A stretch of DNA of 64,000 nt from Candidatus Yanofskybacteria bacterium RIFCSPHIGHO2_01_FULL_44_24 (GTDB lineage: Bacteria > Patescibacteriota > Minisyncoccia > 2-02-FULL-40-12 > GWA2-44-9), in assembly GCA_001794215.1 (NCBI GenBank), contig MGJK01000012.1, forward strand, positions 4,834-68,833. Reading direction: 5' to 3'. Within the stretch, counting starts at the first letter, position 1; the number at the start of each line of letters is the position of its first letter. Below are positions 9,469 through 46,908 of the stretch, piece after piece. Position numbers and translations under genes: made by a program. Below the pieces are notes generated by a model that saw nothing but the letters and a program-made list of their open reading frames with translations, made no database searches and had not been told where the DNA came from.

Positions 9469-9602
9469 AAATTCAAAAATAAAAATGCAAAATTATCGAA
9501 GCTCATTTAGCAACAAAATGAGCAATCCAAATTTTAAACTTTTTAATCAATTTTCAATGATAATAATTCTAAAATTTAAAATTCTAAATTAAAAATTTTG
9601 TA
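9469..9602 (+). repeat. AT-rich intergenic element with central hairpin (family copy D)
   Basis: gaaaattcaaaaataaaaatgcaaaattatcg + hairpin gctcattt agcaacaa aatgagc + T-rich arm ...aattttaaactttttaat... ending at the ATG of the next gene. Same architecture as the copies at 37157 and 38225. Confidence 0.6.
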
Positions 9603-15599: not shown

Positions 15600-15601
15600 A
15601 T

Positions 15602-23052: not shown

Positions 23053-24021
23053 TTATTTTTTAATTTGTTCTCTATTCTTAAAGTCATAATAAAGTTTCAG
23101 CCAGTCCAGGAAAAAAATAGAAGGATATTTTTTGTTTTGAAAACGTAACGAGCGGTATTCAAGATGTCTTTGATGTTTACGCCAGTATAAATCTAAATGC
23201 GAAGGGTCGATAATTATGCAATATCTGGCAAAATCTTCTAAGGTATCTTCCATCGTAAATTTAACTTCCCGGCCGATTGTTTTTAGAAAAGTTGTAAAAA
23301 GATGGTTCTCGGGGCCTCCGAAGGAAAGAGGTTTTGTTAGCAGGTCAATTCGCCAATAAGCAGTCATATCTTTAATATGACCGAAGAGGAACTCATCGGA
23401 TAAGTGGTATAACTGAGATCCTAAAGCCTCTGTCCCCAGAGCTATTATGCGGTTTTTTAAAAAAATATTTTGTTCTTGAGAATTTTCCGGGGGGTAGAAT
23501 CTTGTTAGGTTATGCAAATGATCAATGATTTTTGGAGCATATATGCGCTGGTCATTTCGAGTGTTAAGTATGTATTCCACGCCTAATTCCGCTGCTTTTT
23601 CTATTCCTGCAATCGTAGTCGTAATTTGAAAATTAAGATGGAAAGGCCCGGCTATCGAGGGTTTTCTAACGAGGACAACTTCGGCACCTGCTTGGTAAAT
23701 TTTCTCGAGATAAGCCGGCTCCTCGTCATTCCAGGTGGATACCACAATAGGTACTTGAGGGTGAAGCTTTTTGTAGGTTCTTACGGTTTCAAGGGTAAAA
23801 TCATTGGGCTTAATAATTTCTCCCCTTATCAATATTGCCGTTTTGGGATTGACGACAGCGATGCCCATATTAGCTTTTACTTCTGAAGCTTTGACTGGTC
23901 TAATCCGGATGGTTATAAATTTACCCCTTGAATTCTCAATGAAATGCAAAATAGACACTGCGAGCTTTTTTATATAAAAAACTAATTTAATTCTGTATTT
24001 AGTTGGCGTTAAATAACTCAT
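23053..24021 (-). CDS. conserved polysaccharide-locus protein of unknown function (paralog of 39653..40615)
   Basis: 322 aa, about half identical by eye to the 320-aa protein at 39653 (shared NDFTLETVR.YKKLHP...VSTWNDE.PAYL.KI, TIAGI..A.LG.EY.L.TRNDQR.Y, YFPPENSQ, IIDP...DLY). Possibly WavE-like, but not confirmed. Confidence 0.5.
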   Translation of the reverse strand: MSYLTPTKYRIKLVFYIKKLAVSILHFIENSRGKFITIRIRPVKASEVKANMGIAVVNPKTAILIRGEIIKPNDFTLETVRTYKKLHPQVPIVVSTWNDEEPAYLEKIYQAGAEVVLVRKPSIAGPFHLNFQITTTIAGIEKAAELGVEYILNTRNDQRIYAPKIIDHLHNLTRFYPPENSQEQNIFLKNRIIALGTEALGSQLYHLSDEFLFGHIKDMTAYWRIDLLTKPLSFGGPENHLFTTFLKTIGREVKFTMEDTLEDFARYCIIIDPSHLDLYWRKHQRHLEYRSLRFQNKKYPSIFFLDWLKLYYDFKNREQIKK

Positions 24022-24142: not shown

Positions 24143-24589
24143 ATGGTTTTAATATCGCATCGGGGCAATATTAGCGGTGAAAATCCGGAAAGGGAGAACA
24201 GTCCCGGGTATATTATAGAGGTTTTGACCCGAGGCTATAATGCCGAAATTGATGTAAGGCTTATTGATGGTATTTTTTGGCTTGGTCACGATGCTCCCCG
24301 ATATCAAATAGAGGAGAGCTTTTTGGAAAATGACAAATTGTGGTGTCATGCGAAGAACTTCGCGGCATTGGCAAAAATGCAGCAAAATAAAAAAATACAT
24401 TTTTTTTGGAATCAGGAAGACAATTTTGCCCTGACTTCAAAGGGGTTTATCTGGACATATAAAAGCAAAGAAATTTGTCCCGTGTCTGTGCTGGTTAAAC
24501 CGGAAGTACTGGGGATAACCGATAAAAAAAAGTTGCCGGATTGCTATGGCATTTGCTCTGATTTCGTAGCCAACTTTAATGAAATATAA
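24143..24589 (+). CDS. short glycerophosphodiester-phosphodiesterase-like protein
   Basis: VLISHRGN (HRG motif) and AEIDVRLIDGIFWLGHDAP (E-x-D-V...DG...HD motif) of the GDPD fold. Only 148 aa, so truncated relative to canonical GDPDs. Confidence 0.45.
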   Translation: MVLISHRGNISGENPERENSPGYIIEVLTRGYNAEIDVRLIDGIFWLGHDAPRYQIEESFLENDKLWCHAKNFAALAKMQQNKKIHFFWNQEDNFALTSKGFIWTYKSKEICPVSVLVKPEVLGITDKKKLPDCYGICSDFVANFNEI

Positions 24590-25190
24590 AGCTATAATTT
24601 TTGATTTGGATGGCGTATTGGTCAATATGCCTGCCGCTCACTTTGAGGCGCTAAACTGCGCTTTGAGTTTGTTTGGAGTTGCCATTGAGAAGGACGAGCA
24701 TTATAATTTTTTCAACGGGCTTCCTACCAGAAAAAAACTCGAAGAACTTGAGCGGAAGAACCGTCTTCCTGTTGGTTTACGTGAGTTTATTAACAGGATT
24801 AAGCAGAATTACACAAAAGATCTCATTCCGTCATATTGTGTTCCCGATTATTCGAAAATCATTCTTTTACGGTACCTCAAGGGACAGAATTATAAATTGG
24901 CATGCTGCTCAAATTCAATCAGTGAAACCCTCCACCTAATGTTAAAATCCGCCCATTTATTCGATTATTTTGATCTGATCCTGGGAAACGACGAGGTTAC
25001 CAACCCTAAACCGGATCCCGAAATTTATTTAACTGCCTTCAGGCGCTTGCAGGTTAAGCCAAGCGAATGTATTATTGTGGAGGATGCCCCTCATGGCATT
25101 GCGGCCGCAAAAGCCAGCGGGGCCAAGGTTCTTCAGGTTAGAAATACCGAAGACGTAAACTTATCTTTATTTTACAGCGAAGGCATTTAG
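24579..25190 (+). CDS. HAD-superfamily hydrolase (beta-phosphoglucomutase-like phosphatase)
   Basis: AIIFDLDGVLV motif I and a C-terminal IVEDAPHGIAAAKASG motif IV region. Confidence 0.75.
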   Translation: MKYKAIIFDLDGVLVNMPAAHFEALNCALSLFGVAIEKDEHYNFFNGLPTRKKLEELERKNRLPVGLREFINRIKQNYTKDLIPSYCVPDYSKIILLRYLKGQNYKLACCSNSISETLHLMLKSAHLFDYFDLILGNDEVTNPKPDPEIYLTAFRRLQVKPSECIIVEDAPHGIAAAKASGAKVLQVRNTEDVNLSLFYSEGI

Positions 25191-25213
25191 TTGCTCTAAG
25201 CTATCTATAGTTT

Positions 25214-25957
25214 ATGCTTAATATTGTTATTCCAATGGCCGGCAAGGGCTCAAGATTTCAGGAGGCAGGTTTTGTGTTTCCAAAACCGCTTATTGATGTG
25301 AAGGGGAAGGCCATGATAGAGCTGGTTGCAAGCAACCTCCGTCCCAGGTGTGCACACCGATTCATATTTATCTGCCAGAGAGAGCATGCAGAAAAATACG
25401 ACCTCCATAATATTTTAAAAAGTGCGACAAAAAATAAATTCGAGATTGTTCAGCTTGGAGGGATGACTCAAGGCGCTGCCTGCACGGTCTTAACCGCTGC
25501 GCAATATATCGATAACGATGATGATCTATTGATCGCCAACTCGGATCAGTTTATTGATTATGATATCAATGATTTTATCAATCGAGGACGCGCTAAGGGT
25601 GATGGATTAATCCTGACTTTTAAATCAAGTCATCCAAAATGGAGTTATGCGCGAGTCGACAGGGCAAGCAGGGTGGCGGAAGTTGCGGAAAAAAAAGTAA
25701 TCTCCGACAGGGCTACCGTGGGGATATATTATTTTAAGCACGGAAAACATTTTGTTGCCGCTGCCCAGGAGATGATTGCGAAAAATATAAGGTACAACAA
25801 TGAATTTTATGTATGCCCGGTTTTTAACGAGCTGATTTTAGGAGGGAAGCAAGTATTTACCAGGAATATATCTGTCGAAAAAATGCATGGCCTTGGTACG
25901 CCGGAAGATCTCAACGCATTTCTCCGCAAGCTGGATAGCGGTATCGTAAAAGTATAA
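25214..25957 (+). CDS. sugar-phosphate nucleotidyltransferase (LicC/IspD-like GT-A fold)
   Basis: N-term IVIPMAGKGSRFQEAGFVFPKPLIDVKGKAMIE (G-x-G-x-R nucleotide-binding motif). Confidence 0.65.
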   Translation: MLNIVIPMAGKGSRFQEAGFVFPKPLIDVKGKAMIELVASNLRPRCAHRFIFICQREHAEKYDLHNILKSATKNKFEIVQLGGMTQGAACTVLTAAQYIDNDDDLLIANSDQFIDYDINDFINRGRAKGDGLILTFKSSHPKWSYARVDRASRVAEVAEKKVISDRATVGIYYFKHGKHFVAAAQEMIAKNIRYNNEFYVCPVFNELILGGKQVFTRNISVEKMHGLGTPEDLNAFLRKLDSGIVKV

Positions 25958-25966
25958 TATTATGAA

Positions 25967-27781
25967 TTACGATGCCGGCGGCAAATCTGCGTAAGCGTTT
26001 ACGTTTTTATGCATTCTATAAAAATATGAATTCTGGTCGGCCAGTAAATCTCTTGGCGACCCTTCTTCTATCACTCTTCCCTGATTAACAACAATAAGCT
26101 TGTCGGAGTTTGTTATTGTCGAAAGTCGATGAGCTATTATTACTATGGTGATCTTGCCTCGTAATTGACTGATAGCATTTTGGATGAGGGCCTCCGATTC
26201 ATTGTCTATGGCGCTTGTAGCCTCATCCAAAATCAGTATTTTGGGTTTTCTTGCCAGCGCCCTAGCTAAAGATATTCTTTGTCTCTGTCCTCCGGAAAGC
26301 TTCAGACCCCTCTCTCCAACCAAAGTTTCAAATTTATCCGGCAAATTCTGGATTGTTTCATAAATGTCAGACATTTGGGCGGCTTCTACAACGTCGCGCC
26401 TGGACATTGAGTCATCGTAAAATTTTATATTATTCTCAATGGTATCATTTAGGAGAAACGTATCTTGGGGGACATAGCCTATGTTTCTTCTCCATTCTGT
26501 TAAGTTGACGGTAGAAATATTTTTATCATCCATCATAATTTCGCCTGCTCCCGGAATAAAAAGACGAAGAATCAGATCAACAAACGTGGTTTTTCCGGTT
26601 CCGGAGGGCCCGACAATACCAGTTATCTCCCCCCTCTGTATAGAACAGGAGATATCTGATAGTATTTTCTTTTGCGCATCATATGCAAAGCTAACATGAT
26701 TAAATTTTAATGCATGTTTGAAATCAAATCTCTCCCCATTTTCGTATATCTCCCTGTTGTTGCTTGTGACTTTTCGGTGTTCTATGACTAACTCAAGGAA
26801 AGGGAGCTGGGTGTTAATGCTCTGAATTTGACCCTGGGCGGATTCTAAAAAATTAAACATGCGTTGAATAAGATAAACTACGACTGTGAACGAAGCGATG
26901 CTGAAACCGGGCCTATGGTACGAAAACATAAATAAGAATGCCATGAATATCAGTCCGAGCGGCTCAAAAAGGGCATTGGCAAAAATTCCGTAGGTTAATG
27001 CCTTTGTTCTCGCATTCATTAATTCCTGAAAATAGTGACGGCCCCTCTCGATCACCTTATCTTCAGAAGATGTAGTCTTGATTATTTTAGCCCCGATCAT
27101 ACTTTCGCCTATATGGTGGCTTGCTATTTTATAAACATCGGCGATCCTTTTCGAAAGCTGACGCGTTCTAAAAAGTAACGGTTTAAGGCCGACAAAGATT
27201 AAGGCACCAGCAAGTATCGATAGTATCGTGATCGAAGCCGATACATTGAAGGCCACCAGACCGTACATGATAAAGCTTGTCATCGCGATCACAAAGGAAG
27301 TGAGAAGGTTCAGGATTCCTGCGCTTTGGCCCGTATCGCTTAAGATCAATCTTTCCAGATGGCCGATTTTTTGATTGATCAAGTATGGCCAAACGGCCCG
27401 AATGGTGTCTTCGAGTAAGATAGTCCTCGTTTCTTCTTCGTATTTTGCGGTCATTCTCTCATTCGTAAACTTAATCATAAATAACGTTATAGCTTTTAAA
27501 ATAAAAAGCGTGACTATGAGCATTAAAAGAAATGGCAGTGTAAGCGGAATGTGGAGAAAATTTAATAAATGCGCGACGATTTTATTTATAAAATCAGTTC
27601 CCTCGATTGTCTGATTTGTAAGCAGTGAAAAAATCGGGATTATGACGCTGATTCCCAAACTACCCAATAGTCCGGTTACAAAACCCAAGACTATCATGGT
27701 TGCAAACGCAATTTTGTATTGCCTGAAGGACTCCCTGATCAGTCCAGCGGCGCGTCCTATTTTATTGAGGTTTATGATCAT
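25967..27781 (-). CDS. ABC exporter, fused permease/ATP-binding protein (MsbA-like)
   Basis: Six-TM N-domain plus NBD with Walker A GPSGTGKTT, signature LSGGQRQRISLARAL and Walker B ILILDEATSAID. Confidence 0.85.
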   Translation of the reverse strand: MIINLNKIGRAAGLIRESFRQYKIAFATMIVLGFVTGLLGSLGISVIIPIFSLLTNQTIEGTDFINKIVAHLLNFLHIPLTLPFLLMLIVTLFILKAITLFMIKFTNERMTAKYEEETRTILLEDTIRAVWPYLINQKIGHLERLILSDTGQSAGILNLLTSFVIAMTSFIMYGLVAFNVSASITILSILAGALIFVGLKPLLFRTRQLSKRIADVYKIASHHIGESMIGAKIIKTTSSEDKVIERGRHYFQELMNARTKALTYGIFANALFEPLGLIFMAFLFMFSYHRPGFSIASFTVVVYLIQRMFNFLESAQGQIQSINTQLPFLELVIEHRKVTSNNREIYENGERFDFKHALKFNHVSFAYDAQKKILSDISCSIQRGEITGIVGPSGTGKTTFVDLILRLFIPGAGEIMMDDKNISTVNLTEWRRNIGYVPQDTFLLNDTIENNIKFYDDSMSRRDVVEAAQMSDIYETIQNLPDKFETLVGERGLKLSGGQRQRISLARALARKPKILILDEATSAIDNESEALIQNAISQLRGKITIVIIAHRLSTITNSDKLIVVNQGRVIEEGSPRDLLADQNSYFYRMHKNVNAYADLPPAS

Positions 27782-27789
27782 TTTCGAGG

Positions 27790-29580
27790 TCAGTCTTTTA
27801 TATGATAAGCTTTGTAAAAATGAGAACTTTTGTTCTTAAGCAATTCCTCCGGTCTTCCTTCTTCGATAATTCTGCCTTCCTCGAGCACCATCAGCTTATC
27901 CGCATTGGTGATAGTGCTTAAGCGGTGGGCAATGACTAAAATAGTAACCCTGCCCTTTAGGCCGCTAATTGCTTTTTGTATCAAAGCTTCTGATTCCGTA
28001 TCTACTGAACTTGTGGCTTCATCAAGGACGAGGATTTTCGGATTTCTTGCCAATGCCCTGGCCAGGACTATCCTCTGTCTTTGACCCCCGGACAGTTCAA
28101 TACCCCTTTCTCCCACTACGGTTTGAAATCTATCGGGAAGTTCAGAAACGAAATCGTATATGCTGGCCATTTTAATGGCCTTAATAATTTCCTCATGAGT
28201 TACGGTTTCGTCATAGAATTTGACGTTGTTCTCTATGGTGTCATTTAAAAGGAATATGTCTTGAGGGACATAACCGATGTTGTTTCGCCACGCCTTGAGA
28301 TCTATCTTCAGTATATTTTTACCGTCAAGCAGTATTTGGCCGCCGTCCGGTTCTAAGAGCCGTAGCAAGAGGTCTACGACAGTTGTTTTCCCTACTCCCG
28401 AGGGTCCGATGATCCCAACCACCTCTCCTTTTTGAATTGAAAAATTTAAATTCTTTAAAATTTCTCCTGAGCGAGGGTATGAAAATTCTATTCCCTTAAA
28501 CTCAAGAGACTTGTTAAATTCGAAATCATCAGTGCCACGATTTACCTCCACGCTATTCTTTGCAATAGTTTTGTATTCCGCCGTACTTTCCAGGTAGGGA
28601 ATCAATCCGTTAAATCCTTGCATTTGGCTTTGGGCCGACTGGATAAATGAAAACATTTTTTGGATTAGATAAACGACAACGCCAAAAGCAGCGATATTAA
28701 ATTCAGGAGTCCTATATGTGAAAATAAACAGAAGCCCCACGAAAGCTATGCCGGTAGGTTCGAGAGATTGTCCTAAAGAGTAGGTGTAAAAACTCATCTT
28801 TATTCTTGCCCTTCTCAACTTGTCGAAATAGTGGAGGCCCTTACTTATGACCCTATCCTCGGTTGAGGTGGCCTTCACTATCTTAGCGCCTATGATATTT
28901 TCTCCGACATGGTGGGCAACCTCCTTAAAGGTAGCACTTATTTCTTCTGAAATTTTCCTGGTCTTAAAAAATAACGGTTTGAAGAGAAAGAAAAGGATTC
29001 CTCCGAAGCCCATGGTCATGAGCGTAACGGTAGACGATATCTTGAATGCGACAAAGGCGTAGGCGATAAAGCTGGTCGCGATTAATATACTTGAACTTAC
29101 TTGGTTCAAGAGCGATGCGGCGTTGGATATATCAAATAAAAGCACCCTCTCAAGATAGCCAGTTTTTTGCTCCATTAAAGACGGCCAGTCGGCTTTCAGG
29201 GTTTTTTCGAACAGATCTTTTCGGAGATCTTCTTCGAGCCGGGCGACTAATTTTTCAGTATTGTATTTTGAGAAAAACTGGGTCAGGGCCTTTAACGCAA
29301 AGAGAGCGACCATAAAAGCGATCAAAAAAGCCGGCGTTAACGGAATATGAAGAAAAGAAAAAGACCAGGCTACGTTTCTTGTAATAAAGTCTGTGCCCTC
29401 TACGGCGACGTTAGAGAACAATGAGAATAGGGGAATAACGACGCCTATTCCTATGCTTCCGGCCAAACCGTTCAAAAAGCCAAGCAGGATGGTCAGAATA
29501 AGGCCGGATTTATACGGTCCTATAAGATCCTTACTTAATACAAAAATGTATTTTATTTTTTGGAAAGTATTCAGGCTCAT
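27790..29580 (-). CDS. ABC exporter, fused permease/ATP-binding protein (MsbA-like; probable heterodimer partner)
   Basis: Walker A GPSGVGKTT, signature LSGGQRQRIVLARAL and Walker B ILVLDEATSSVD. Adjacent to and co-directional with the paralog at 25967. Confidence 0.85.
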   Translation of the reverse strand: MSLNTFQKIKYIFVLSKDLIGPYKSGLILTILLGFLNGLAGSIGIGVVIPLFSLFSNVAVEGTDFITRNVAWSFSFLHIPLTPAFLIAFMVALFALKALTQFFSKYNTEKLVARLEEDLRKDLFEKTLKADWPSLMEQKTGYLERVLLFDISNAASLLNQVSSSILIATSFIAYAFVAFKISSTVTLMTMGFGGILFFLFKPLFFKTRKISEEISATFKEVAHHVGENIIGAKIVKATSTEDRVISKGLHYFDKLRRARIKMSFYTYSLGQSLEPTGIAFVGLLFIFTYRTPEFNIAAFGVVVYLIQKMFSFIQSAQSQMQGFNGLIPYLESTAEYKTIAKNSVEVNRGTDDFEFNKSLEFKGIEFSYPRSGEILKNLNFSIQKGEVVGIIGPSGVGKTTVVDLLLRLLEPDGGQILLDGKNILKIDLKAWRNNIGYVPQDIFLLNDTIENNVKFYDETVTHEEIIKAIKMASIYDFVSELPDRFQTVVGERGIELSGGQRQRIVLARALARNPKILVLDEATSSVDTESEALIQKAISGLKGRVTILVIAHRLSTITNADKLMVLEEGRIIEEGRPEELLKNKSSHFYKAYHIKD

Positions 29581-29588
29581 TAAAATAT

Positions 29589-30524
29589 TCAGCTGTTTTT
29601 AAGATACCAGTTCAGGGTTTCCTTGAGGCCGTTTTTTAATTTTATCTTAGCCGTAAATCCGAACTCCTTTTTGGCCTTGCTAATATCGATTGCTCTGCGG
29701 GGTTGGCCATCCGGCTTTTCTTTATCCCAGATAATTTTATTTTTGTAGTCCGCCACTTTGGATATAAGTCCCAGTAATTCCTTGATTGAGATTTCTTGCC
29801 CCGATCCGATATTGATCGGTTCCGGTTTATTGTATTTTGCCGTAGCTAAGACTATCGCTTCTGCCGCATCGTCGACATAAAGAAATTCTCGAGTAGCTTT
29901 GCCCGTACCCCATGCCTGAAGGGGCTTATTATTTTTCTTGGCCTCAACTATTTTGCGGACAAGGGCGGCAACAACGTGGCTTGAGGCGGGATCAAAGTTA
30001 TCGCCGGGGCCGTATAGATTCTCGAGGAGAAGGTGTATCGAGTTAAATCCGTATTCCTGTCTGTAGGCTTGGCCTTGTACCAAAACAGCCTTTTTCGCTA
30101 TTCCATAGGGAGCATTGGTTTCTTCGGGGTAGCCCAGCCAGAGATCTTCTTCTTTGAACGGTACGGGAGTAAATTTAGGGTATTCACAAACAGACCCGAT
30201 CATTATAAATTTCTTAACACCGGCCCTATGCGAAGCTTCCATCAGGTTGACTCCCATACTTATATTATCATAAAAGGCCTTTGCCGGATGTTCTTTGTTA
30301 TAGCCTATTCCTCCGACTATTGCTGCGCAATGGATTACGATATCTTGTTCGGCCGTCAGCTTCTCACAGTTGCTTAAGAGTCGTAAGTCGTAATCTTTTG
30401 AGCGGGGGATCGTTATATTTTTTTTCAATACTCCTGCCCGTACTAAGCGATCAGCAACCCGTCTACCCAAAAAACCGGCTCCACCGGTCAGCAATATTTT
30501 TTTATTTTTAAAATAATTATCCAT
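29589..30524 (-). CDS. GDP-L-fucose synthase family 3,5-epimerase/4-reductase (Fcl / GDP-colitose synthase ColC-like)
   Basis: ILLTGGAGFLG, IGSVCEYPK, NAPYGIAKK, NLYGPGDNFDPASSHVV and TREFLYVDD match the Fcl/WcaG family throughout. Confidence 0.8.
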   Translation of the reverse strand: MDNYFKNKKILLTGGAGFLGRRVADRLVRAGVLKKNITIPRSKDYDLRLLSNCEKLTAEQDIVIHCAAIVGGIGYNKEHPAKAFYDNISMGVNLMEASHRAGVKKFIMIGSVCEYPKFTPVPFKEEDLWLGYPEETNAPYGIAKKAVLVQGQAYRQEYGFNSIHLLLENLYGPGDNFDPASSHVVAALVRKIVEAKKNNKPLQAWGTGKATREFLYVDDAAEAIVLATAKYNKPEPINIGSGQEISIKELLGLISKVADYKNKIIWDKEKPDGQPRRAIDISKAKKEFGFTAKIKLKNGLKETLNWYLKNS

Positions 30525-30532
30525 TTTGTTTG

Positions 30533-30976
30533 TTATTTAAATCCCGCTGATGCAAGAACCTCGCGAACGTATTTAGGCCATTGCTTATCTATGCGTGAAA
30601 ACCACTGAATGGTCGAATGCTGGCTATCCGGCCGAGTATTACCCGCTGATTTTATTGTAACGGCGTGTATGATATTAATATTGTGGCAGGGGTACTTGAA
30701 GGCGCTGTCGGGGAAAAATACTTCGTTTACTGTCAGGAAGCGGATCTTTGTAATCACACTTGTCGATAATCCGGTTTCTTCTTTTATTTTACGCATTACA
30801 GCGTTTAATATTTTTTCATTTTTTAAAATTCTTCCACCGGGAAACCACCATTTATTTTTTGCCGGCGCGTTGGCTCTTTTGCCGAGCAAGAATTTGCGCC
30901 GATGGATTAAAATAAACTCCACGCATGTAATGGGCATTGTCTCAACAATTTTCTTGTACGAAGCCTTGCTGATCAT
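30533..30976 (-). CDS. Nudix hydrolase (GDP-mannose mannosyl hydrolase-like)
   Basis: Nudix box GGRILKNEKILNAVMRKIKEETGL (G-x5-E-x7-REUxEExGU). Sits between the dehydratase and reductase, as gmm does in gmd-fcl clusters. Confidence 0.7.
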   Translation of the reverse strand: MISKASYKKIVETMPITCVEFILIHRRKFLLGKRANAPAKNKWWFPGGRILKNEKILNAVMRKIKEETGLSTSVITKIRFLTVNEVFFPDSAFKYPCHNINIIHAVTIKSAGNTRPDSQHSTIQWFSRIDKQWPKYVREVLASAGFK

Positions 30977-30986
30977 TAGCTCTTTG

Positions 30987-32159
30987 TTATCTTACCAACG
31001 CGGTAATTATTTTGAGATCCGAGTTAGTCAGTTCAGGATTATTGCCGAAATAAAATCCATTTCTATGCGCGAATTCGGCATTGGGACAGCTTGATGTTTC
31101 GGTTTGATCCCGATTATGTTTCTTAAAAAATGGCTGAAGAATCATACTGCCGCCGACAATGGGTCGAATTTCAAGTTTATTTTTTAGCTTTTTAACGAGC
31201 CTGTCGTGATCTCCTTGCGAGCGGCATAATACCGGAAAGGCAAAGTTCGAGACCATGTCTATATGGGAGTGGCGCAGAGGAATAAAGGCCCTATTGGCGT
31301 AGATTGTTTTAGCTAACTGAGTAAAGTTTTGATTTCTTTTTTGAATTATTTTATCTATGTGACGGAGCTGTTCGTTGCCCAAGAATCCATTGATTTCTGT
31401 CGGGCGCAAGTTATAGCCCAAATCATAAAATGTATATTGGGCATGGAACTGCTTTACTCTGTGTTTAGCCCTTAATTCCTCTTTTTCTTCCTCTTCTAAG
31501 TGTCTATCCCAACCGTGGGCTCGGACTATTCTGAGCATTTTAGCCAAGTCTTTATCGTCAGTGCAGACCGCCCCGCCCTCTATAGTTGACATATGATGAC
31601 CTACGAAGAAGGAAAAGGTACTGGCTAATCCAAAATTTCCTAACTTCTTACCCTTATATACAGTACCCAGGGCTTCACAATTATCCTCGATTAGGATCAT
31701 ATTTTGGTCTTGGCAGATTTTCTTTATTTGGTCTATGTCGTGGCAAAAACCGAGAAGGTTCGTTATAAAGAGTGCTTTTAGACCTTTGTTTTTTAGGGAC
31801 TCAGTTACTTTCTTGCTGGATATATTCAGAGTATCCAGTTCAATGTCTATGGGTACGGGCCTTAGTCCAAGCTGGATCAGCGGCATTACGTTGGTAGCCC
31901 AAGTTAAAGCAGAGAAACCGACCTCGTTGCCCGGCTTTAGTTGGCCGGAGTTCAATAGTGCCTGAATAAGCGCCAAGTTAGCCGAGCTGCCGCTGTTAAA
32001 GAAGATACAGTACTTTCTACCCTGGTACTCGGCGAAATTCTTTTCAAATTTTTCACATTCCGGTCCGAAGCTTAGTTGACTGGTTCGGCCGATGAAGTTA
32101 GTGAGCTTATCTTTTGTCTCTCTCTCCCGGTAGAAGGTAGATTTTATCAGTTTAATCAT
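30987..32159 (-). CDS. PLP-dependent DegT-family sugar 3-dehydratase, ColD-like (GDP-4-keto-6-deoxy-D-mannose 3-dehydratase)
   Basis: DegT/AHBA-synthase fold ([20 protein letters not shown]). In the Schiff-base motif [17 protein letters not shown] the usual Lys is replaced by His (His188 by my count), the hallmark of ColD/E1-type dehydratases. Confidence 0.65.
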
Positions 32160-33178
32160 ATTTTTATTCCTTCATTTCTTAGATCCGCCTCTACCATGAT
32201 TCTAACCAAGTCTTCAAATTTAGTTTTGGGCTTCCAGCCAAGAATCTTCGTTGCCTTAGTCGGATCGGCCTTAAGGACATTAACTTCTGTTGGCCGATAA
32301 TAGCGCGGATCAATCTCGATGTATTTTTTGTAGCTACCGAGACCCGCCACTTGGAAGGCGAGCTTCACGAATTCTTTTACCGAATGAGTTTCTCCGGTCC
32401 CTATGACATAGTCGTCTGGTTTGTTTTGCTGAAGCATTAGCCACATTGCTTCGCAATATTCAGGAGCATAACCCCAGTCTCTTTTGGCCTCCAGATTGCC
32501 TAAATATATCTTCTTATCTTTTCCGGCTACGATTCGAGCTATGCCCCGGGTTATTTTTTTGGTCACAAAAGTTCCTCCTCGTCGGGGGCTTTCATGATTA
32601 AATAGTATTCCATTGGAGGCGAATATATTGTAGGCCTCCCTGTAATTTACGGTTGTGTTGTAGGCAAAAACCTTGGCGACAGCATAAGGACTTCTGGGAT
32701 GAAAAGATGTATTTTCGTTTTGCGGCGGAGGAGCGGAACCGAACATTTCAGAACTGGATGCTTGGTAGAACTTCACTTTTTGTCCGGTGTCATGTTGGTA
32801 GTCCTTGATTGCTTCTAAGATTCTGAGAGTTCCAAGGCCGGTTATGTCTGCTGTGTATTCCGGAATATCGAAAGATACCCTCACATGAGATTGCGCACCC
32901 AAATTGTATATTTCCTGGGGCTTGATTGAGTAGAGCAGTCTCCTTATAGTATTTGAATCCGCCAAGTCCCCATAATGAATTATTAATTTTGGCTTCTTCT
33001 CGTGAATATCTTTGAGTATGTGTTCTACGCGTCCGGTAATGAAAGTACTGGAGCGTCGCATGATTCCATGAACCTCGTATCCTTTTTCAAGTAAAAATTC
33101 AGCTAAGTATGAGCCGTCTTGTCCGGTAATCCCAGTTATTAGAGCCACCTTGGCTTTCTGGTTTTTCTTCAAATTCAT
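32156..33178 (-). CDS. gmd: GDP-mannose 4,6-dehydratase
   Basis: [30 protein letters not shown] and a YAVAKVFA catalytic Y-x3-K region. Full-length Gmd-like, 340 aa. Confidence 0.85.
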
Positions 33179-33269
33179 AGCTAAATTTATATCAAATTTT
33201 AACGTCTTAGTAAAGTTGTTTACGTGCTATGGCCATTGCTGTATCATTTAAGCTATAATTGTCAAAATA

Positions 33270-34034
33270 ATGAATAAATCAAACCAAGATCAAATTAACG
33301 CTACTTGGCGGGATGCTTGGGTAAAAGAGCGGGGGGTTTCGGGTAAGAAGATCTTAGGAAGCCGATTGTCCGTCGAAAGCTATAAAGTCGTCAAGAAATA
33401 TATTCCGGCCGATGTCGGTTCAATTTTGGAAATAGGGACGGGGAGCGGGAGGTTTGCCGTAAGATTTGCTCAGGATTTTCCGAAAGCAAGAGTCGTGGCT
33501 ACGGATATTCTGGAGGAATCTCTTTCCGAGGTCCGGAAGCTATCAAGCGAGCTTGGAGTGGGCAATGTCGAGACAAAACAGGAAGATATTTTCGGACTAT
33601 CATTTTCTGACGGAAGTTTTGATGTGGTTTTTTGTGATGCGGTGATCCAGCATTTACCCGAGTATGAGTCGGCAGTTAAAGAAATGGTCCGAGCGGTTAA
33701 GCCGGGAGGACTGCTGATTGTTTCGGTGGTTAACTTCTGGAATCCCCATACTTTCAATAAATTTCTTCTCGGGAAAAAGTACGAGTATGGCTTTGAAAAA
33801 TCTTTTACCCGTCGAGAGCTTAGGGATATTTTTAAAAAATATGGATTAAGCATTGCGGGAGAGGATGGATTTTATCCGGCTTATGGGATCGCAAGACTTA
33901 AGCGGCGCTATCGGATCTTCGGGCCTATCAGCGGAATTGCCGATAAAGTAGTCAGATTATCTGATAAAGTTTCTAACCGGTTCGTATCGAGGTATTTTGG
34001 ATTCGAGATTCTTATTGTAGGCCGGAAGGTTTAA
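33270..34034 (+). CDS. class I SAM-dependent methyltransferase
   Basis: Motif I ILEIGTGSGRFAVRFA and post-I VKPGGLLIV. Confidence 0.75.
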   Translation: MNKSNQDQINATWRDAWVKERGVSGKKILGSRLSVESYKVVKKYIPADVGSILEIGTGSGRFAVRFAQDFPKARVVATDILEESLSEVRKLSSELGVGNVETKQEDIFGLSFSDGSFDVVFCDAVIQHLPEYESAVKEMVRAVKPGGLLIVSVVNFWNPHTFNKFLLGKKYEYGFEKSFTRRELRDIFKKYGLSIAGEDGFYPAYGIARLKRRYRIFGPISGIADKVVRLSDKVSNRFVSRYFGFEILIVGRKV

Positions 34035-34059
34035 AACAGGATTTGTCTGAAAGCGATAA

Positions 34060-34410
34060 ACAGAAGTAATGAGGGCGCGGCATAAAGTCACTCCGCCTTG
34101 GCTTATTCGAGGCACGCCAATAAATTCCGCTCGCCCCTTATCTATCTTCAGCACGCCTCCGTCCCGCCAGCGACGGGACTCAGCTATGTTCGCCCCGCCC
34201 CTTCAGAACCATGCAAGGGGCGGGGTCTCAAATGCTTCAGATAGACAAGGGGCTTCGCCTTAGTTTTTCGTAAATCCCTTCAATAGGTTAAAGCCTCGCT
34301 TAAGGTTTTAAATAGAAGCCTGCGCAAATCTCCCAATATGCCGGCCGGGGCTTCGCTTAAAGTTGGTTTTGTAAATTCCTTATAGGGTTAACTAATCTAC
34401 CCTCGGTAGC
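34060..34410. other. GC-rich, hairpin-dense intergenic region (possible structured RNA / foreign leader) upstream of intact C-methyltransferase
   Basis: Unusually G+C-rich for this genome. Strong hairpins gccccgcccctt-cagaaccatgc-aaggggcggggt (34192-34227) and gtcccg-ccagcga-cgggac (34161-34179). ggggcttcgc repeats twice. No protein-like ORF; the 64-aa ORF 34069..34263 is low-complexity. Confidence 0.4.
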
Positions 34411-34475
34411 TATCGTTGATTTAATTAATTATTTCCTGTAACATCACAATGAATAAATCGGGAGGAGCTTAAACC

Positions 34476-35738
34476 ATGAAAATACCCAATCATGATGCGC
34501 CAATCGGCAGGATGGACCGATGTCAGATATGCGGCTCGGCCAACCTTTTTGAGGGTATAGATTTAGGCCATCAACCTCCCTGCGATGCTCTTTTAACAAA
34601 TAAAACGATCAACGAGCCGGAGATTTATTATCCTTTGCGCCTAATGATATGTTCCGACTGTGGACTCGGTCAGCTTGACCATGTCGTGGACGGGAAAATC
34701 ATTTATCCCGCCGACTATCCTTATAGGGCCGGAATTTCAAAGCCTTTACGGGATTATCTGCTGACTTATGCCGATGATGTGGTTACGCGGTTGAATGTTC
34801 CGCAGAAGGCCCTATGCGTTGATATAGGCTGTAATGACGGGACATTGCTCACCGGATTTCGGTCCCATGGCATGCGTACGCTTGGCGTTGAGCCGACAGA
34901 TATGGCCAAATACGCCCGGAAAGAAAACAAAATCACAACTTTGCAGGAGTTTTTCACTGAAGGCGTTGCCCGACAAGCAGTTAAAGAATACGGGAAAGCT
35001 AAGGTGGCAACAATGACCAATGTTTTTGCTCATATGGCTCCGTTGGGTAAAGTGATGCGCGGTATCGACAGACTACTGGATAAAGACGGAATGTTTGTTA
35101 CCGAGAGCCAGTATCTTCTTGATGTCTTGGATCGCAATCAGTTCGACCAGGTTTATCATGAGCATATCAGGTTATATAGCCTGAAGTCGCTGACCAAGCT
35201 GTTCCCGTATTATGGAATGGAAGTTTTCGATGCCGAGAAGCTCTCTTCCCGCGAAGGAAGCATCCGTGTTTATGTGGCGCGTAAAGGTGTGCGTCCGGTC
35301 AGTTCGAGGGTGGGCAACCTGCTTGCTCTTGAAGAAAGTCGGGGGCTGTTTGTGCCAGCGGTCTGGGCTCAGTTCCGGGCTCGGGTTAGTGAATGTCGTG
35401 AAAGATTTCTCGATTTAGCCTATAAGGCCAAGAACCAGGGGTTGAGATTTGTTGCCGATTCTTGTCCCGGACGCGGTGCGGTCTTGGTTAATTATTACGG
35501 TTTAGATAAAACCCTGATGCCATACATAGCTCAGCTTCCGGAGTCAGAAAAGGTTGGAAGGTATCTTCCCGGCACCCATATTCCTATCGTGGCTAACGGC
35601 ATTATTCTAAAAGAGAAGCCGGACTATGTGGTCATTCTCGCATGGCATTACGCCGATTTCATCATGAAGAATTGGCGAGCCAAGGGCCTGAAGTCGAAGT
35701 TTGTTATTCCGCTTCCGGATCCGAGGGTTATAAGTTAA
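34476..35738 (+). CDS. NDP-sugar C-methyltransferase (Zn-ribbon + class I MTase + C-methyltransferase C-terminal domain), intact
   Basis: CQICGSAN...CSDCGLGQL zinc ribbon, VDIGCNDGTLL motif I and the C-terminal domain (GRGAVLVNYYG...DYVVILAWHYADFIM). Good SD gggagg 9 nt upstream. Visibly higher G+C than its neighbours. Confidence 0.8.
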   Translation: MKIPNHDAPIGRMDRCQICGSANLFEGIDLGHQPPCDALLTNKTINEPEIYYPLRLMICSDCGLGQLDHVVDGKIIYPADYPYRAGISKPLRDYLLTYADDVVTRLNVPQKALCVDIGCNDGTLLTGFRSHGMRTLGVEPTDMAKYARKENKITTLQEFFTEGVARQAVKEYGKAKVATMTNVFAHMAPLGKVMRGIDRLLDKDGMFVTESQYLLDVLDRNQFDQVYHEHIRLYSLKSLTKLFPYYGMEVFDAEKLSSREGSIRVYVARKGVRPVSSRVGNLLALEESRGLFVPAVWAQFRARVSECRERFLDLAYKAKNQGLRFVADSCPGRGAVLVNYYGLDKTLMPYIAQLPESEKVGRYLPGTHIPIVANGIILKEKPDYVVILAWHYADFIMKNWRAKGLKSKFVIPLPDPRVIS

Positions 35739-35753
35739 TTAAAGTGTCCCCCA

Positions 35754-35785
35754 AGAGCAGACTGATTAGTCTGCTCTTTGATTTG
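35754..35785 (+). terminator. rho-independent terminator candidate
   Basis: agagcagact gatt agtctgctct is a perfect 10-bp stem followed by ttgatttg. Confidence 0.6.
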
Positions 35786-36003
35786 TCGGGTAGTGAATGT
35801 TTGAGATGCAATTTTCTAAAGAAAATTGCCACGGCAAAGCCACTCAAACATCTACTACCTGACGATTTGAAAAAGCATGTATTTAGGGTATATTAACCAT
35901 AGGATCAAATCCGAATAGCGAAACAAGAAATTCGAAACAAACAATAAGCCCGAAGCTTTTAGAGGGTGGCCGGTGGGCGTGCGGGGTATTCAAATGTTTG
36001 GAG

Positions 36004-36038
36004 TTTCGATCTTCGATATTGTTTCGTATTTCGAAATT
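36004..36038 (+). promoter_or_regulatory. conserved T-rich half of palindromic leader motif (TTCGAYATTGTTTCG-KW-TTTCGAWATT), ~20 nt upstream of start codon
   Basis: tttcgatcttcgatattgtttcgtatttcgaaatt. Near-identical copies lie at 46924 and 54547, each ~20 nt from a start codon and each paired with an upstream A-rich complement (cgaaacaa). Confidence 0.55.
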
Positions 36039-36058
36039 CTAATTTCTAATTTAAGTAG

Positions 36059-37156
36059 ATGATACCCTTTTTGGATCTAAAAAGTTTGAATGCTCCAATG
36101 AAGAAAGAACTCATGAAGGCTATTGAGAATGTTTTTGATTCCGGCTGGTATATCTTGGGCAGACAGTTAATCTTATTCGAAAAAGAATTTGCCAAGTACT
36201 GTGGAACCAGATATGCGGTAGGGGTGGGCAACGGACTCGATGCGCTCATTCTGATTTTTCGTGCCTACAAAGAAATGGGAATCATGAGAGAGGGCGATGA
36301 GGTCATCGTTCCGGCCAATACCTACATTGCCAGCATACTTGCCGTTACTGAAAACAGGCTCAAGCCGGTTTTAGTTGAGCCTGATCTGGCGACGTACAAC
36401 ATCGATCCGGATCTGATTGAGGAGAAGATCACCGATAAGACAAGAGCGATCATGGTGGTGCACCTGTATGGACGGGTCGGATATTCGGATAAAATTCGAA
36501 AAATTGCTGATAAATATAATCTAAAAGTAATTGAAGACGGAGCTCAGTCTCACGGCGCCGAGTACAAGGGGAGAAAATCTGGAAATTTGGGAGATGCCGC
36601 CGGACACAGCCTGTACCCTTCAAAACCCTTTGGTGCCTTAGGTGATGCGGGGGTTGTGACCACTAACGATCCTAAGTTGGCGGAGGTGGTCAGCGCTATA
36701 AGAAATTACGGGAGCTATAAAAAATACTACAACCGTTACAAGGGCGTTAATAGCCGTTTAGATGAACTGCAAGCCGCGGTTCTTTCGGTTAAGTTAAAAT
36801 ATTTAGACAAAGATAATGACGAGCGCAGGAAAATAGCCGACCTTTATCTGGAGAGTATTAAAAATAAAAAGATTGCCCTACCTCAAGTTAAAGATAAGAA
36901 ATCCCATGTCTGGCATCTTTTCGCTATCAGAGCAAAAGACAGAGAGCAATTTGCCGAGCATATGCTGAAGAAGGGGATCGAAACCCTCATTCATTACCCG
37001 GTCCCGCCCCACAAACAGGAGGCATTTAAAGAATGGAAGAGTCAAAAGTATCCGATAACCGAAGAGATACATGATACGGTTATCAGCTTGCCCCTTTATG
37101 GAACGATGACTAAAAGGCAGATAGAACAGGTGATTGAGGCGTGCAACGCATTCTAA
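36059..37156 (+). CDS. DegT/DnrJ/EryC1/StrS-family PLP-dependent sugar aminotransferase
   Basis: Full-length with the conserved active-site Lys present ([15 protein letters not shown]). GVGNGLDAL and [11 protein letters not shown] motifs. Confidence 0.8.
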
Positions 37157-37270
37157 TTCTAATGAAAAATTCAAAAATCAAAGTGTAAAATTATTGTAAC
37201 CCGTAAAACCCCTTGATTTTTACGGGTATCCTGAATTTTTAATTTTGATATTTACATTTTAAATTTTGGT
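37157..37270 (+). repeat. AT-rich intergenic hairpin element (family copy A)
   Basis: ctaatgaaaaattcaaaaatcaaagtgtaaaattattgtaa + hairpin acccgtaaaa-cccctt-ga-ttttacgggt + T-rich arm gaatttttaattttgatatttacattttaaatttt, ending at an ATG. Confidence 0.7.
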
Positions 37271-38224
37271 ATGAAGAAGATAGCATTTGTTGTCGGAGTT
37301 TTTCCAGCCGTGTCTGAAACCTGGATGATCAATCAAGTCGCCGGTGCTTTAGATCGGGGTTTTGACGTGGATATTTATTCTTTTGAACGTCAGGACGAAA
37401 AGAATGTGTCCGATGTTTATCGTAAATATAAAATGTCTGAGCGGACGAGGTATATAGGGATGCCCGAGAACAAAATCGTAAGAATCGCTTTGGCTCTGCC
37501 GAAAATTATCAGACTTTTGTTAGTTTCTCCGGGAACTTTATTCAAAAGTTTGAATGTCGGGGAATACGGCCGGAATGCCCTATCTCTGAAATTTCTTTTC
37601 TGGTCTGAAGCTTTTGCCGGCAAAAAATACGATCTTATCCATCTCCATGACGGAGTTATAGCCGCTCGGTTTTTGACCATAAGAGATATAGCCGGAATCA
37701 AGGGTAAACTGCTGACCTCCTTCTATGGACAGGACGTGAGCCGGAGGGTAAAAGAAAATCCTCATATTTACGACAGGCTCAAGAAGACTGATTCGGAGTT
37801 TATCGTCATGTCGGATTATATGAGAAAACGCGTAGTAGATATGGGGTTTGACGAAAAAAGAGTTCACACCGTGTCGATATTCGGGATTGATGTTGACGCG
37901 CATCCGTTTAAGGAGAGGACAATTTCTCCCGGCGAGACATTCGAAATTGCGGCGATGGGCCGGTTTGTGGAGAAAAAGGGATTTGACGACATTCTAAGGG
38001 CCTTAGCCATCGTAAAGCAGAAGGCGAATAGGAAGTTTCATTTCAGTTTTATCGGAGGCGGAGAACTTGATCAAAAGCTTAGAAAAATGACCACAGACCT
38101 CGATTTGGATGATGTCGTCTCTTATAAAGGATACATGAAGATAGAAGATGCAATGAAATATTTAATGGGTATGCATCTGTACCTTCAGCCGTCAAAGATG
38201 GCGTCTGACGGAGACCAGGAATAA
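37271..38224 (+). pseudogene. GT4 glycosyltransferase, N-terminal 317-aa fragment (gene split by repeat element)
   Basis: GT4-like through ...LYLQPSKMASDGDQE, then a TAA exactly where the E-G-x-P...LEAMA motif should continue. The element copy at 38225 follows. Confidence 0.65.
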
Positions 38225-38338
38225 CCTAATGAAAAATTTAAAAATCAAAATGTAAAATTATTGTAACTCGCGAAATTAACCGACTTTTGCGAGTATCCTT
38301 AATTTTTAACTTTGATCTTTACATTTTAAACTTTTTAG
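38225..38338 (+). repeat. AT-rich intergenic hairpin element (family copy B) inserted inside a GT4 gene
   Basis: cctaatgaaaaatttaaaaatcaaaatgtaaaattattgtaa + hairpin actcgcgaaa...ttttgcgagt + T-rich arm. Collinear with copy A. The hairpin has compensatory substitutions (cccgtaaaa/ttttacggg versus ctcgcgaaa/ttttgcgag). Confidence 0.7.
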
Positions 38339-38617
38339 ATGACCACTTCTGTCCTACAAGCCCTTGCTACCGGTCTTCCATGCATCACCACTAATCACGG
38401 TGCCTTTAACGAGCAGATAGTTGATGGCAAAAACGGTTTTATGGTTCCGGAAGGAGATTATATGGCATTAGCCGAGAAGGTACTGTATTGCATGGATCAT
38501 CCGGAGCTATGGCCCGGTTTTGGTCGTTTTGGCAGACAACAGGTTCGGGATCGCTTTGATCTAAATTCTCTAATGGATAGGCAAGTTCAAATTTATAATA
38601 ACCTTTTAAGTAAATAA
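38339..38617 (+). pseudogene. GT4 glycosyltransferase, C-terminal 92-aa fragment with its own ATG
   Basis: MTTSVLQALATGLPCITTNHGAFNEQIVDGKNGFMVPEGD is the remainder of the GT4 E-x7-E region. Joined to the 317-aa upstream piece it gives a normal-length (~409 aa) GT4. Confidence 0.65.
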
Positions 38618-46557: not shown

Positions 46558-46908
46558 ATGAACGAAGCTAAAAAACCTTATGATTTGGAAGAGCGGTCTT
46601 TACTGTTTGCTAAACGAGTTAACGGTTATGTGCGTAAATTGCCGAAGGATACTCCTAATTTTGAAAACGGAAAGCAATTGGTCCGTTCTGGTGGTTCAAT
46701 CGGAGCTAATTATATCGAAGCTAACGAGGCTATGAGTAAGAAAGATTTTAGAATGAGAATCAAGATATCTAAGAAAGAGGCCAAGGAAACTGTCTTCTGG
46801 TTAAAGTTGACTCAACCGACTTCAGAACAAATAAACGAAAAAGACGATTTAGTAAAAGAAGCTGGCGAGTTGATGAATATTTTAGGCGCTATCTTGGTTA
46901 AATCTTAG
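46558..46908 (+). CDS. four-helix-bundle protein (23S rRNA IVS protein / Avd-like family)
   Basis: YDLEERSLLFAKRV...SIGANYIEANEAMSKKDF...KEAKETVFWLKL. Paralog of 8485. Flanked by the inverted A-rich/T-rich arms at 46498-46540 and 46924-46958. Confidence 0.75.
   Translation: MNEAKKPYDLEERSLLFAKRVNGYVRKLPKDTPNFENGKQLVRSGGSIGANYIEANEAMSKKDFRMRIKISKKEAKETVFWLKLTQPTSEQINEKDDLVKEAGELMNILGAILVKS

Follow-up and report, generated by a model that had tools for sequence, protein, structure and literature searches.

A predicted GDP-colitose-type pathway operon in a glycan island of Candidatus Yanofskybacteria

Results

An operon predicted to make GDP-L-colitose

In a 64,000-nucleotide stretch of contig MGJK01000012.1 (positions 4,834 to 68,833 of the forward strand; assembly GCA_001794215.1) from Candidatus Yanofskybacteria bacterium RIFCSPHIGHO2_01_FULL_44_24, hereafter “the window”, we studied a minus-strand operon that joins a gmd gene to genes encoding a ColD-like protein of the DegT family, a Nudix hydrolase and a short-chain dehydrogenase/reductase (SDR). 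This operon probably makes guanosine diphosphate (GDP)-L-colitose (GDP-3,6-dideoxy-L-xylo-hexose) from GDP-mannose, possibly with GDP-L-fucose as a co-product. The sequence tests on the ColD-like protein, Gmd and the SDR all favor this interpretation, and they support the original prediction of a GDP-colitose-type pathway, which had been made from the DNA letters. The operon adds a divergent example to a pathway type that is already known, from a lineage that has been little studied.

Candidatus Yanofskybacteria are uncultivated, ultra-small groundwater bacteria of the candidate phyla radiation (CPR, or Patescibacteria; Parcubacteria lineage). A reduced, low-GC genome had been suspected, correctly, and the GC content of the window is 38-47%. 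The 390-aa DegT-family protein occurs with identical sequence on 23 public contigs (for example MGKL01000003.1, GCA_001795655.1). In Yanofskybacteria, NCBI names the four products “DegT/DnrJ/EryC1/StrS aminotransferase”, “GDP-fucose synthetase”, “GDP-mannose mannosyl hydrolase wbdQ/wbhG” and “GDP-mannose 4,6-dehydratase”.

The four predicted co-directional genes were recovered with exact coordinates in the list of open reading frames (ORFs), all on the minus strand: gmd (32156-33178, 340 aa), the colD-like gene (30987-32159, 390 aa), the Nudix gene (30533-30976, 147 aa) and the Fcl/ColC-type reductase gene (29589-30524, 311 aa). Their profile matches show that none is a chance reading frame (TIGR01472, 524 bits; DegT_DnrJ_EryC1, E 7e-70; NUDIX, E 7e-15; Epimerase, E 9e-54). 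Some assemblies call a shorter, 293-aa reductase; the 311-aa start is right because the shorter version would cut off the TGGAGFLG Rossmann motif.

In the direction of transcription the order is gmd, colD-like, nudix, fcl/colC-like, abc1, abc2, the last two encoding ATP-binding cassette (ABC) exporter half-transporters. The block is as tightly packed as originally described, while the stop/start overlaps proposed for it reduce to one, a 4-nt ATGA shared by gmd and the DegT gene; from the DegT gene onward, neighboring genes are separated by 10, 8, 8 and 8 nt. A single transcription unit of six genes is plausible. Inside the block, promoter-like matches (22, compared to 16.8±5.0 in shuffled sequences) and terminator-like matches (15, compared to 9.8±3.3) were not clearly above expectation. 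The 91-nt intergenic region upstream of gmd in the ORF map (33179-33269) presumably serves as the promoter region for both the operon and a divergent methyltransferase gene; it contains one promoter-like match, on the plus strand at 33230-33259.

Gmd

The Gmd assignment, originally called unambiguous, holds. The protein scored 524.2 bits against the TIGR01472 equivalog, above the curated cut-off of 415, and shares 54% identity with each of the two E. coli Gmd copies. Its best match in the PDB was 1N7G (E 3e-135), and the 11 PDB sequences matched at E <= 1e-60 were all GDP-mannose 4,6-dehydratases, save for 5UZH, which carries only a code name.

Alternatively, this enzyme might be a GDP-manno-heptose 4,6-dehydratase, and the operon part of a GDP-heptose pathway that yields a 3,6-dideoxyheptose, a sugar type found in some Campylobacter capsules. 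Gmd has homologs among the heptose dehydratases, and the Campylobacter pathway is of a similar kind; in addition, the window holds sugar-1-phosphate nucleotidylyltransferases that we could not assign. We consider a heptose product exceedingly unlikely in view of the score above the equivalog cut-off and the identity of the PDB matches. Moreover, the 64-kb window contains no heptose-pathway gene, neither GmhA (SIS) nor HddA (GHMP kinase).

The DegT-family protein as a ColD-type 3-dehydratase

The key feature proposed for the DegT-family protein, a histidine in place of the lysine that forms the Schiff base with pyridoxal 5'-phosphate (PLP), is present in the 390-aa protein. This protein matched Pfam DegT_DnrJ_EryC1 (E 7e-70). 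When it was compared to the PDB with phmmer, the top matches were four entries of E. coli O55 ColD (2GMS, E 1.9e-62, 214.7 bits), followed by E1 (3BCX, E 6.5e-47, 163.5 bits), a putative nucleoside diphosphate (NDP)-4-keto-6-deoxyglucose 3-dehydratase (E 1.4e-33, 119.6 bits) and perosamine synthetase (best E 1.6e-31, 112.8 bits). By phmmer score it is therefore closer to characterized ColD than to E1, SpnQ-type dehydratases or aminotransferases. Its length is also similar to that of ColD (388 aa; 390 aa in the solved chains).

In the alignment with ColD and E1, the window histidine falls under ColD His188, a column that the mutant ColD chains 2R0T and 3B8X (H188K and H188N) identify. This histidine is invariant in 82 of 82 homologs, and no frame or start yields a lysine at the PLP position. 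ColD residues D159, E162, S183, R219, N248 and R331 are likewise matched in the window protein, each of them invariant in the same 82 homologs. Together with S187, these are reported by Cook and Holden to be the residues that contact the cofactor and the GDP-sugar, and all the residue numbers agree with the residue types of the E. coli protein.

The public name “aminotransferase” and the Pfam family raise the possibility that the protein is an aminotransferase of the GDP-perosamine synthase type, giving a 4-amino-4,6-dideoxy sugar. This is highly unlikely: the Schiff-base position is occupied by histidine in all 82 homologs, ColD scores about 100 bits above perosamine synthetase, and the replacement of lysine by histidine is the key difference that marks 3-dehydratases off from aminotransferases (PMC8987622).

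A second possibility is an E1-type (RfbH/DdhC) dehydratase of a cytidine diphosphate (CDP)-3,6-dideoxyhexose pathway, such as those for abequose, tyvelose, paratose or ascarylose. The best NCBIfam match of the protein is indeed the RfbH equivalog NF011936, although its 239 bits are below the cut-off of 423. Relatives of the protein are labeled “CDP-6-deoxy-D-xylo-4-hexulose-3-dehydrase” by the Joint Genome Institute (JGI), and some of them follow an SDR that resembles CDP-glucose dehydratase. On the other hand, ColD outscores E1, and the cysteine loop DCYCAPGCDNTC of the [2Fe-2S] cluster of E1 (3BCX) corresponds in the window protein to an acidic stretch free of cysteine. Because of this replacement, a mechanism dependent on an iron-sulfur (Fe-S) cluster and an E3 reductase is not expected; unlike E1 and SpnQ, ColD works without an Fe-S cluster and uses glutamate to regenerate pyridoxamine 5'-phosphate (PMP) (PMC8987622). 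Neither the ORF list nor the annotation contains an E3-type reductase gene in the operon, which also lacks rfbF and rfbG, and the gene is translationally coupled to gmd. We therefore give the E1 pathway very little chance.

Taken together, these comparisons make it very likely that the DegT-family protein is a ColD-type 3-dehydratase. That it acts on the product of Gmd is predicted from its genomic coupling to gmd; the same coupling is found in eight of the loci with which we compared the window (L008, L024, L031, L036, L038, L058, L059 and L102). An AlphaFold2 model built from a 13-sequence alignment was poor (mean predicted local distance difference test score, pLDDT, 59.7; predicted template modeling score, pTM, 0.47) and was set aside.

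The reductase: colitose or fucose

The fourth protein had been described as an SDR of the Fcl/ColC type, and it does carry the full catalytic set. It matched Pfam Epimerase (E 9e-54), and at the positions of E. coli Fcl S107, C109, Y136, K140 and H179 it has Ser, Cys, Tyr, Lys and His. We take Cys109 and His179 of the E. coli GDP-fucose synthase to be the epimerization pair. The catalytic residues are identical in ColC and Fcl and were rejected as a means of separating the two.

The most serious question is whether this SDR is an ordinary GDP-L-fucose synthase, so that the main product would be GDP-L-fucose, alone or with colitose, and the ColD-like enzyme would feed a side branch or another reductase. 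Several observations point that way and weigh against a colitose product. The best NCBIfam profile of the SDR is Fcl (GDP-L-fucose synthase equivalog NF047922, 277.9 bits, below the cut-off of 500), and its top PDB matches are the GDP-L-fucose synthases 7LL6 (E 4.8e-62) and E. coli 1BSV (E 3.5e-54). Its identity to E. coli O55 ColC (35.9%) is no higher than that to E. coli Fcl (36.3%). These two enzymes are 39.4% identical to one another and group together in a neighbor-joining (NJ) tree, away from the window clade, which suggests that the window SDR is not an ortholog of enterobacterial ColC. Among 80 metagenome loci collected with the window SDR (56-67% identity), 48 are classic gmd-fcl pairs, with gmd nearby, mostly immediately upstream, and no ColD-like gene; a close ColD-like homolog was found in 2.

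Context within the tree argues in the other direction. The window SDR sits in a 13-member subclade in which every member with visible context, including that of locus L112, flanks a His-type DegT gene. In the SDR-collected set such a flank was found for 3 of 3 assessable subclade members compared to 2 of 75 elsewhere (hand-calculated Fisher p ~1e-4), and in the two exceptions the DegT proteins are long (459 and 468 aa) and are not encoded between gmd and the SDR. The bootstrap value of this subclade is weak (95 of 200), another point against a colitose product. The proposed phylogenetic distinction between Fcl and ColC was thus borne out in part: a ColD-coupled subclade exists with weak support, while the assignment to ColC by sequence failed, most relatives being gmd-fcl enzymes. 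The SDR comes close to grouping strictly with Fcl and is set apart only by that subclade.

A second clade of Fcl-like SDRs (c2b) is 34-39% identical to the window SDR and has a bootstrap value of 200 of 200. Its members (loci L021, L028, L033, L050, L053, L056, L063, L068, L071, L072, L082 and others) adjoin a ColD-like gene in every case, in most of them immediately downstream, and the Cys/His pair is kept; among CPR genomes this clade probably provides the “ColC-like” partner more often. The idea that c2b enzymes are non-epimerizing and make D-sugars came from one atypical representative and was rejected, since the Cys is kept in 15 of 16 members. His79 (window numbering) is common to both ColD-coupled SDR clades and occurs in 9% of the other close relatives, and it is rare among the enzymes of gmd-fcl pairs; as a possible mark of ColD-coupled SDRs it is a lead and not a proof.

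Fucose as the main product has a real but small chance. Dehydratase and SDR are encoded in one tight operon, the SDR further downstream; the SDR subclade shows coupling to His-type DegT genes, and the operon holds no other reductase that could finish the ColD product. Our reading is that the SDR is an epimerase/reductase of the Fcl/ColC group that would work like ColC and may also make GDP-fucose.

Further points against a colitose product come from the dehydratase and from the rest of the window. The identity of the DegT-family protein to genomic E. coli O55 ColD (from our E. coli O55:H7 reference locus, L088) is low, at 33-34%, and ColD Ser187 is replaced by Gly in the window protein and the whole family. 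The CPR members of this family are putative 3-dehydratases. The 64-kb window contains no clear ManB or ManC gene for GDP-mannose supply, its 247-aa nucleotidyltransferase (25214-25957) could not be assigned, and no colitosyltransferase was identifiable in it.

Distribution and context of the ColD-like family

The operon had been thought notable on the ground that colitose is an enterobacterial and Vibrio sugar. This was overstated: the ColD-like family is common in CPR and other uncultivated bacteria, ColD and ColC have been predicted outside the enterobacteria before (PMC8204192), and the claim of rarity fails. In the protein database the window protein has thousands of ColD-like relatives, the top 120 at 62-70% identity, and scanning one genome per species for a pattern gave relatives in at least 382 species genomes. 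The context counts that follow refer to the best 80 of 382 relatives (59-65% identity). Many of these are from Levy-, Sacchari-, Pace-, Woese- and Gottesmanbacteria; others are metagenome-assembled genomes labeled Gammaproteobacteria or belong to a few other phyla. Among the papers listed by a combined search, which was not a direct two-term query, none linked colitose and CPR.

The neighbors of these genes are mixed, and here too the evidence runs partly counter to a GDP-colitose pathway. Coupling to gmd is missing from most of the family: gmd lay within 6 kb at only about 8 of the 80 loci, while an Fcl-like SDR was near the ColD-like gene at 31. Neither was found within 3 kb for 48 of 81 homologs scored, which lie amid glycosyltransferases. 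For about 10 relatives, the gene preceding the ColD-like one encodes an SDR whose best match is CDP-glucose-4,6-dehydratase (156 bits, cut-off 278) and not Gmd; at loci L013, L018, L020, L028, L029, L039, L071, L072 and L082 it lies directly or closely upstream. It would be unusual for a ColD-type enzyme free of Fe-S to use a non-GDP substrate. Nucleotide specificity is therefore not uniform across the family as judged by context.

On the other hand, the gmd-coupled members, including the window protein, cluster near the base of the family tree, and the module gmd, colD-like, (nudix), SDR recurs in CPR genomes (L008, L024, L031, L036, L038 and L102). Two more loci, L015 and L092, have colD-like, nudix and SDR genes with no gmd within the sequence stretch compared. 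At L112 (2847-5945), gmd is split over two ORFs and is followed by a very divergent His-type DegT gene (SHS motif) and then by an SDR of the window subclade. This DegT protein is 27-30% identical to either ColD and may represent a second, independent ColD-like lineage.

Proposed pathway

In the pathway to GDP-L-colitose that we propose, Gmd, whose family is clear, would oxidize and dehydrate GDP-mannose to GDP-4-keto-6-deoxy-D-mannose. The PMP of the ColD-like enzyme would then form a Schiff base with the 4-keto group, and the histidine corresponding to His188 would take the C4' proton as the 3-OH is expelled. Hydrolysis of the enamine would give GDP-4-keto-3,6-dideoxy-D-mannose and ammonia, and glutamate would regenerate PMP from PLP with no need for an iron-sulfur cluster or an E3 reductase. 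This mechanism is borrowed from characterized ColD, the features that define membership having been compared by sequence. The SDR would epimerize C5 and reduce C4 with NAD(P)H to give GDP-L-colitose; alternatively, it may turn the un-dehydrated intermediate into GDP-L-fucose. The Gmm-like Nudix hydrolase probably trims the pool of GDP-mannose or GDP-sugar. Finally, as suggested by adjacency, the two ABC proteins probably act as a heterodimer that exports or flips a glycoconjugate, lipid-linked or of another kind, that would be made by the surrounding glycosyltransferase-rich island.

The Nudix hydrolase and the ABC exporters

A gmm-like Nudix gene in the middle of the block had been predicted, and GDP-mannose mannosyl hydrolase is both the best family and the best solved match of the 147-aa protein, though the family score is below its cut-off (NF011963 subfamily, 66.8 bits, cut-off 146; E. 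coli 1RYA, E 5e-13; Pfam NUDIX, E 7e-15). It is 30-31% identical to E. coli Gmm and to O55 WbdQ, and the “QH..W” segment aligns. E. coli Gmm has the reduced Nudix box RLTMAE for REUXEE, and a catalytic His near the C-terminus. The window box, G-x5-E-x7-R-K-I-K-E-E-T-G-L, is intermediate between the canonical form and Gmm: it has no Glu after the Arg, as in Gmm, while the EE pair that Gmm has lost is kept.

The two half-transporter genes follow on the minus strand, abc1 (27790-29580, 596 aa) 8 nt after the reductase gene and abc2 (25967-27781, 604 aa) 8 nt after abc1. The first product has the TMD-NBD (transmembrane domain, nucleotide-binding domain) architecture and the second probably has it too; they are presumed to be partners in a heterodimer. 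The first matched Pfam ABC_membrane and ABC_tran; the second matched ABC_tran, with 26.0 bits for ABC_membrane against a Pfam cut-off of 28. All NCBIfam scores were below cut-off (HepA-family 329, MsbA 324 and PglK 244 bits for the first; HepA-family 339 and MsbA 286 bits for the second; the curated equivalog cut-offs are 725 for HepA-family and 602 for MsbA). That the block runs directly into two ABC exporters, as first noted, is correct. The suggested link to sugar export is drawn from this adjacency, and the pair is not kept beside the pathway in relatives, which speaks against tying it to colitose.

The surrounding glycan island

The 64-kb window is one glycan island, with many GT4 and GT2 glycosyltransferases, methyltransferases, two B12-radical-SAM-region genes, RmlD, two NeuB and two cytidine monophosphate (CMP)-sugar synthetase genes. 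An Rfam scan of the window gave no match.

Divergent from gmd, on the plus strand at 33270-37156, lie genes for a class I S-adenosylmethionine (SAM)-dependent methyltransferase (33270-34034, 254 aa; Methyltransf_11/25/31, with only sub-threshold NCBIfam matches), an NDP-hexose C-methyltransferase-like protein (34476-35738, PF08421 and PF08484) and a Lys-type DegT aminotransferase (DegT365, 36059-37156). It could be speculated that these genes divert the GDP-4-keto-(3,)6-deoxy intermediate, so that a deoxy sugar that is branched, 4-aminated or both would arise in place of colitose or alongside it. The C-methyltransferase architecture and the lysine at the Schiff-base position of DegT365 would suit such a role. 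C-methyltransferase homologs also lie at most 6 kb from ColD-like genes at L029, L030, L031, L050, L062, L071, L072 and L082, and a separate Lys-type DegT homolog (29-41% identity) accompanies them at L030, L031, L050 and L062.

However, the divergent genes are on the other strand, and two of them are replaced in a close relative. Contig L003 is 99.9% identical to the window over 24166-34283 and then differs, with NadE and NadD as neighbors. It shares the methyltransferase, the gmd-to-ABC module, the nucleotidyltransferase and HAD, while the C-methyltransferase and aminotransferase genes are replaced. The block from the methyltransferase to HAD is thus conserved and the right-hand part of the island is variable, so the link of the divergent genes to the module is not obligatory. 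We consider diversion improbable and retain colitose as the predicted product. The SAM methyltransferase, which is conserved with the module across strains, is possibly tied to it. A GC-rich hairpin is present at about 34190-34235, just inside the part shared with L003.

Other features of the window were noted in passing. An insertion sequence (IS) element with an rve-family transposase ORF on the minus strand (12637-13875) and perfect 14-nt inverted repeats (12617-12630 and 13948-13961) interrupts an NDP-hexose C-methyltransferase gene, of which a PF08421 part (11920-12621) lies on one side and a PF08484 part (13945-14532) on the other. An AT-rich repeat of about 109 nt occurs at 37159-37267, 38226-38334 and 55918-55998, with partial copies at 2331-2438 and 9462-9591; most copies lie between ORFs. 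It folds as one long hairpin (-22.4 kcal/mol, z = -5.7), and its central stem varies on both sides among copies (CCCGTAAAA/TTTTACGGG compared to CTCGCGAAA/TTTTGCGAG). One copy, which contains stop codons, sits within a GT4 glycosyltransferase gene (37271-38617) and thereby splits it into two same-frame pieces (37271-38224 and 38339-38617), which suggests a miniature inverted-repeat transposable element (MITE)-like insertion or a pseudogene.

Two paralogous WavE-family (PF07507) genes on the minus strand (23053-24021 and 39653-40615) flank the central part of the island and are 77% identical over 188 nt (23660-23847 and 40266-40453). Two small “23S rRNA intervening sequence protein” (PF05635) genes, at about 8485-8883 and 46558-46908, and a GIY-YIG gene are also present.

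Discussion

Implications for CPR surface glycans

To our knowledge, very little is known about the cell-envelope chemistry of CPR bacteria. If the prediction of GDP-L-colitose synthesis holds, it provides a concrete and easily testable nucleotide-sugar pathway for CPR surface glycans, one that calls for three soluble enzymes and for GDP-mannose, which can be bought. The analysis further indicates that public annotation hides a widespread 3-dehydratase family behind labels such as “DegT aminotransferase” and “GDP-fucose synthetase”. The gain is incremental, since the chemistry is not new and colitose genes have been predicted outside enterobacteria before.

A broader scenario, speculative and in our estimate rather doubtful, is that a ColD-type, Fe-S-free route to 3,6-dideoxy-L-hexoses, assembled independently, is in wide use among CPR bacteria, with reductases recruited at least twice from Fcl-like enzymes and not inherited with enterobacterial ColC. 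In this Yanofskybacteria lineage a heterodimeric ABC flippase would be dedicated to the route and firmly tied to it, placing a colitose-type sugar on the cell surface. If true, such a sugar could matter for attachment to host cells or evasion of phages and grazers. In a bolder variant, the divergent neighbor genes would also C-methylate and aminate the 4-keto-3,6-dideoxy intermediate, giving a sugar without a described pathway.

Comparison with known systems

One comparable case is Candidatus Organicella extenuata, a reduced verrucomicrobial symbiont for which ColD and ColC were predicted from sequence and the pathway was reported as incomplete (PMC8204192). Like the window, it represents a predicted colitose pathway in an uncultivated organism with a reduced genome. 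It differs in being a diderm with lipopolysaccharide (LPS), whereas the window is from a CPR bacterium with Gmd, dehydratase and reductase encoded in one operon.

The window ABC pair resembles the type IV ABC exporters and flippases MsbA, PglK and HepA in its predicted half-transporter TMD-NBD architecture, in its two adjacent genes and in its place inside a glycan biosynthesis island. All of its scores against them are below cut-off.

Compared to the E1/E3 system (RfbH/DdhC with DdhD), the window enzyme has in common the His-for-Lys, PMP-dependent C3-deoxygenation predicted for an NDP-4-keto-6-deoxyhexose. The [2Fe-2S] cluster of E1 with its loop DCYCAPGCDNTC, the E3 reductase and the CDP-glucose-derived substrate are features that were not found in the operon.

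The GDP-L-colitose pathway of E. coli O55/O111 and Yersinia pseudotuberculosis, which uses Gmd, ColD and ColC, was reportedly described by Alam et al. in 2004, and ColD structures are available (2GMS, 2R0T, 3B8X and 3GR9). As in the window, the E. coli O55 cluster (L088) has the Gmd, ColD and ColC types together and a Gmm-like Nudix gene, wbdQ, next to the O-antigen gmd. E. coli ColD is an Fe-S-free PMP enzyme with His188 and, S187 excepted, the same cofactor and ligand residues. The annotated coordinates of E. coli colC (14865-15788) and colD (13702-14868) overlap by 4 nt, a feature seen for gmd and the colD-like gene in the window. The gene order is different. The window dehydratase is also only distantly similar to ColD, with Gly at the position of Ser187, and the reductase, which is not specifically akin to enterobacterial ColC, appears to have been recruited from a different Fcl clade. 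The window operon runs into ABC exporters while the E. coli cluster has Wzx/Wzy genes, and CPR bacteria are not known to have LPS or an LPS O-antigen.

Finally, the window resembles the gmd-fcl-gmm module of E. coli colanic acid biosynthesis, which likewise combines Gmd, an Fcl-type epimerase/reductase and a Gmm-like Nudix hydrolase. What distinguishes the window is the His-type 3-dehydratase inserted between gmd and the reductase; on account of this insertion, the sugar is predicted to lose its 3-OH, which would give colitose, that is, 3-deoxy-L-fucose.

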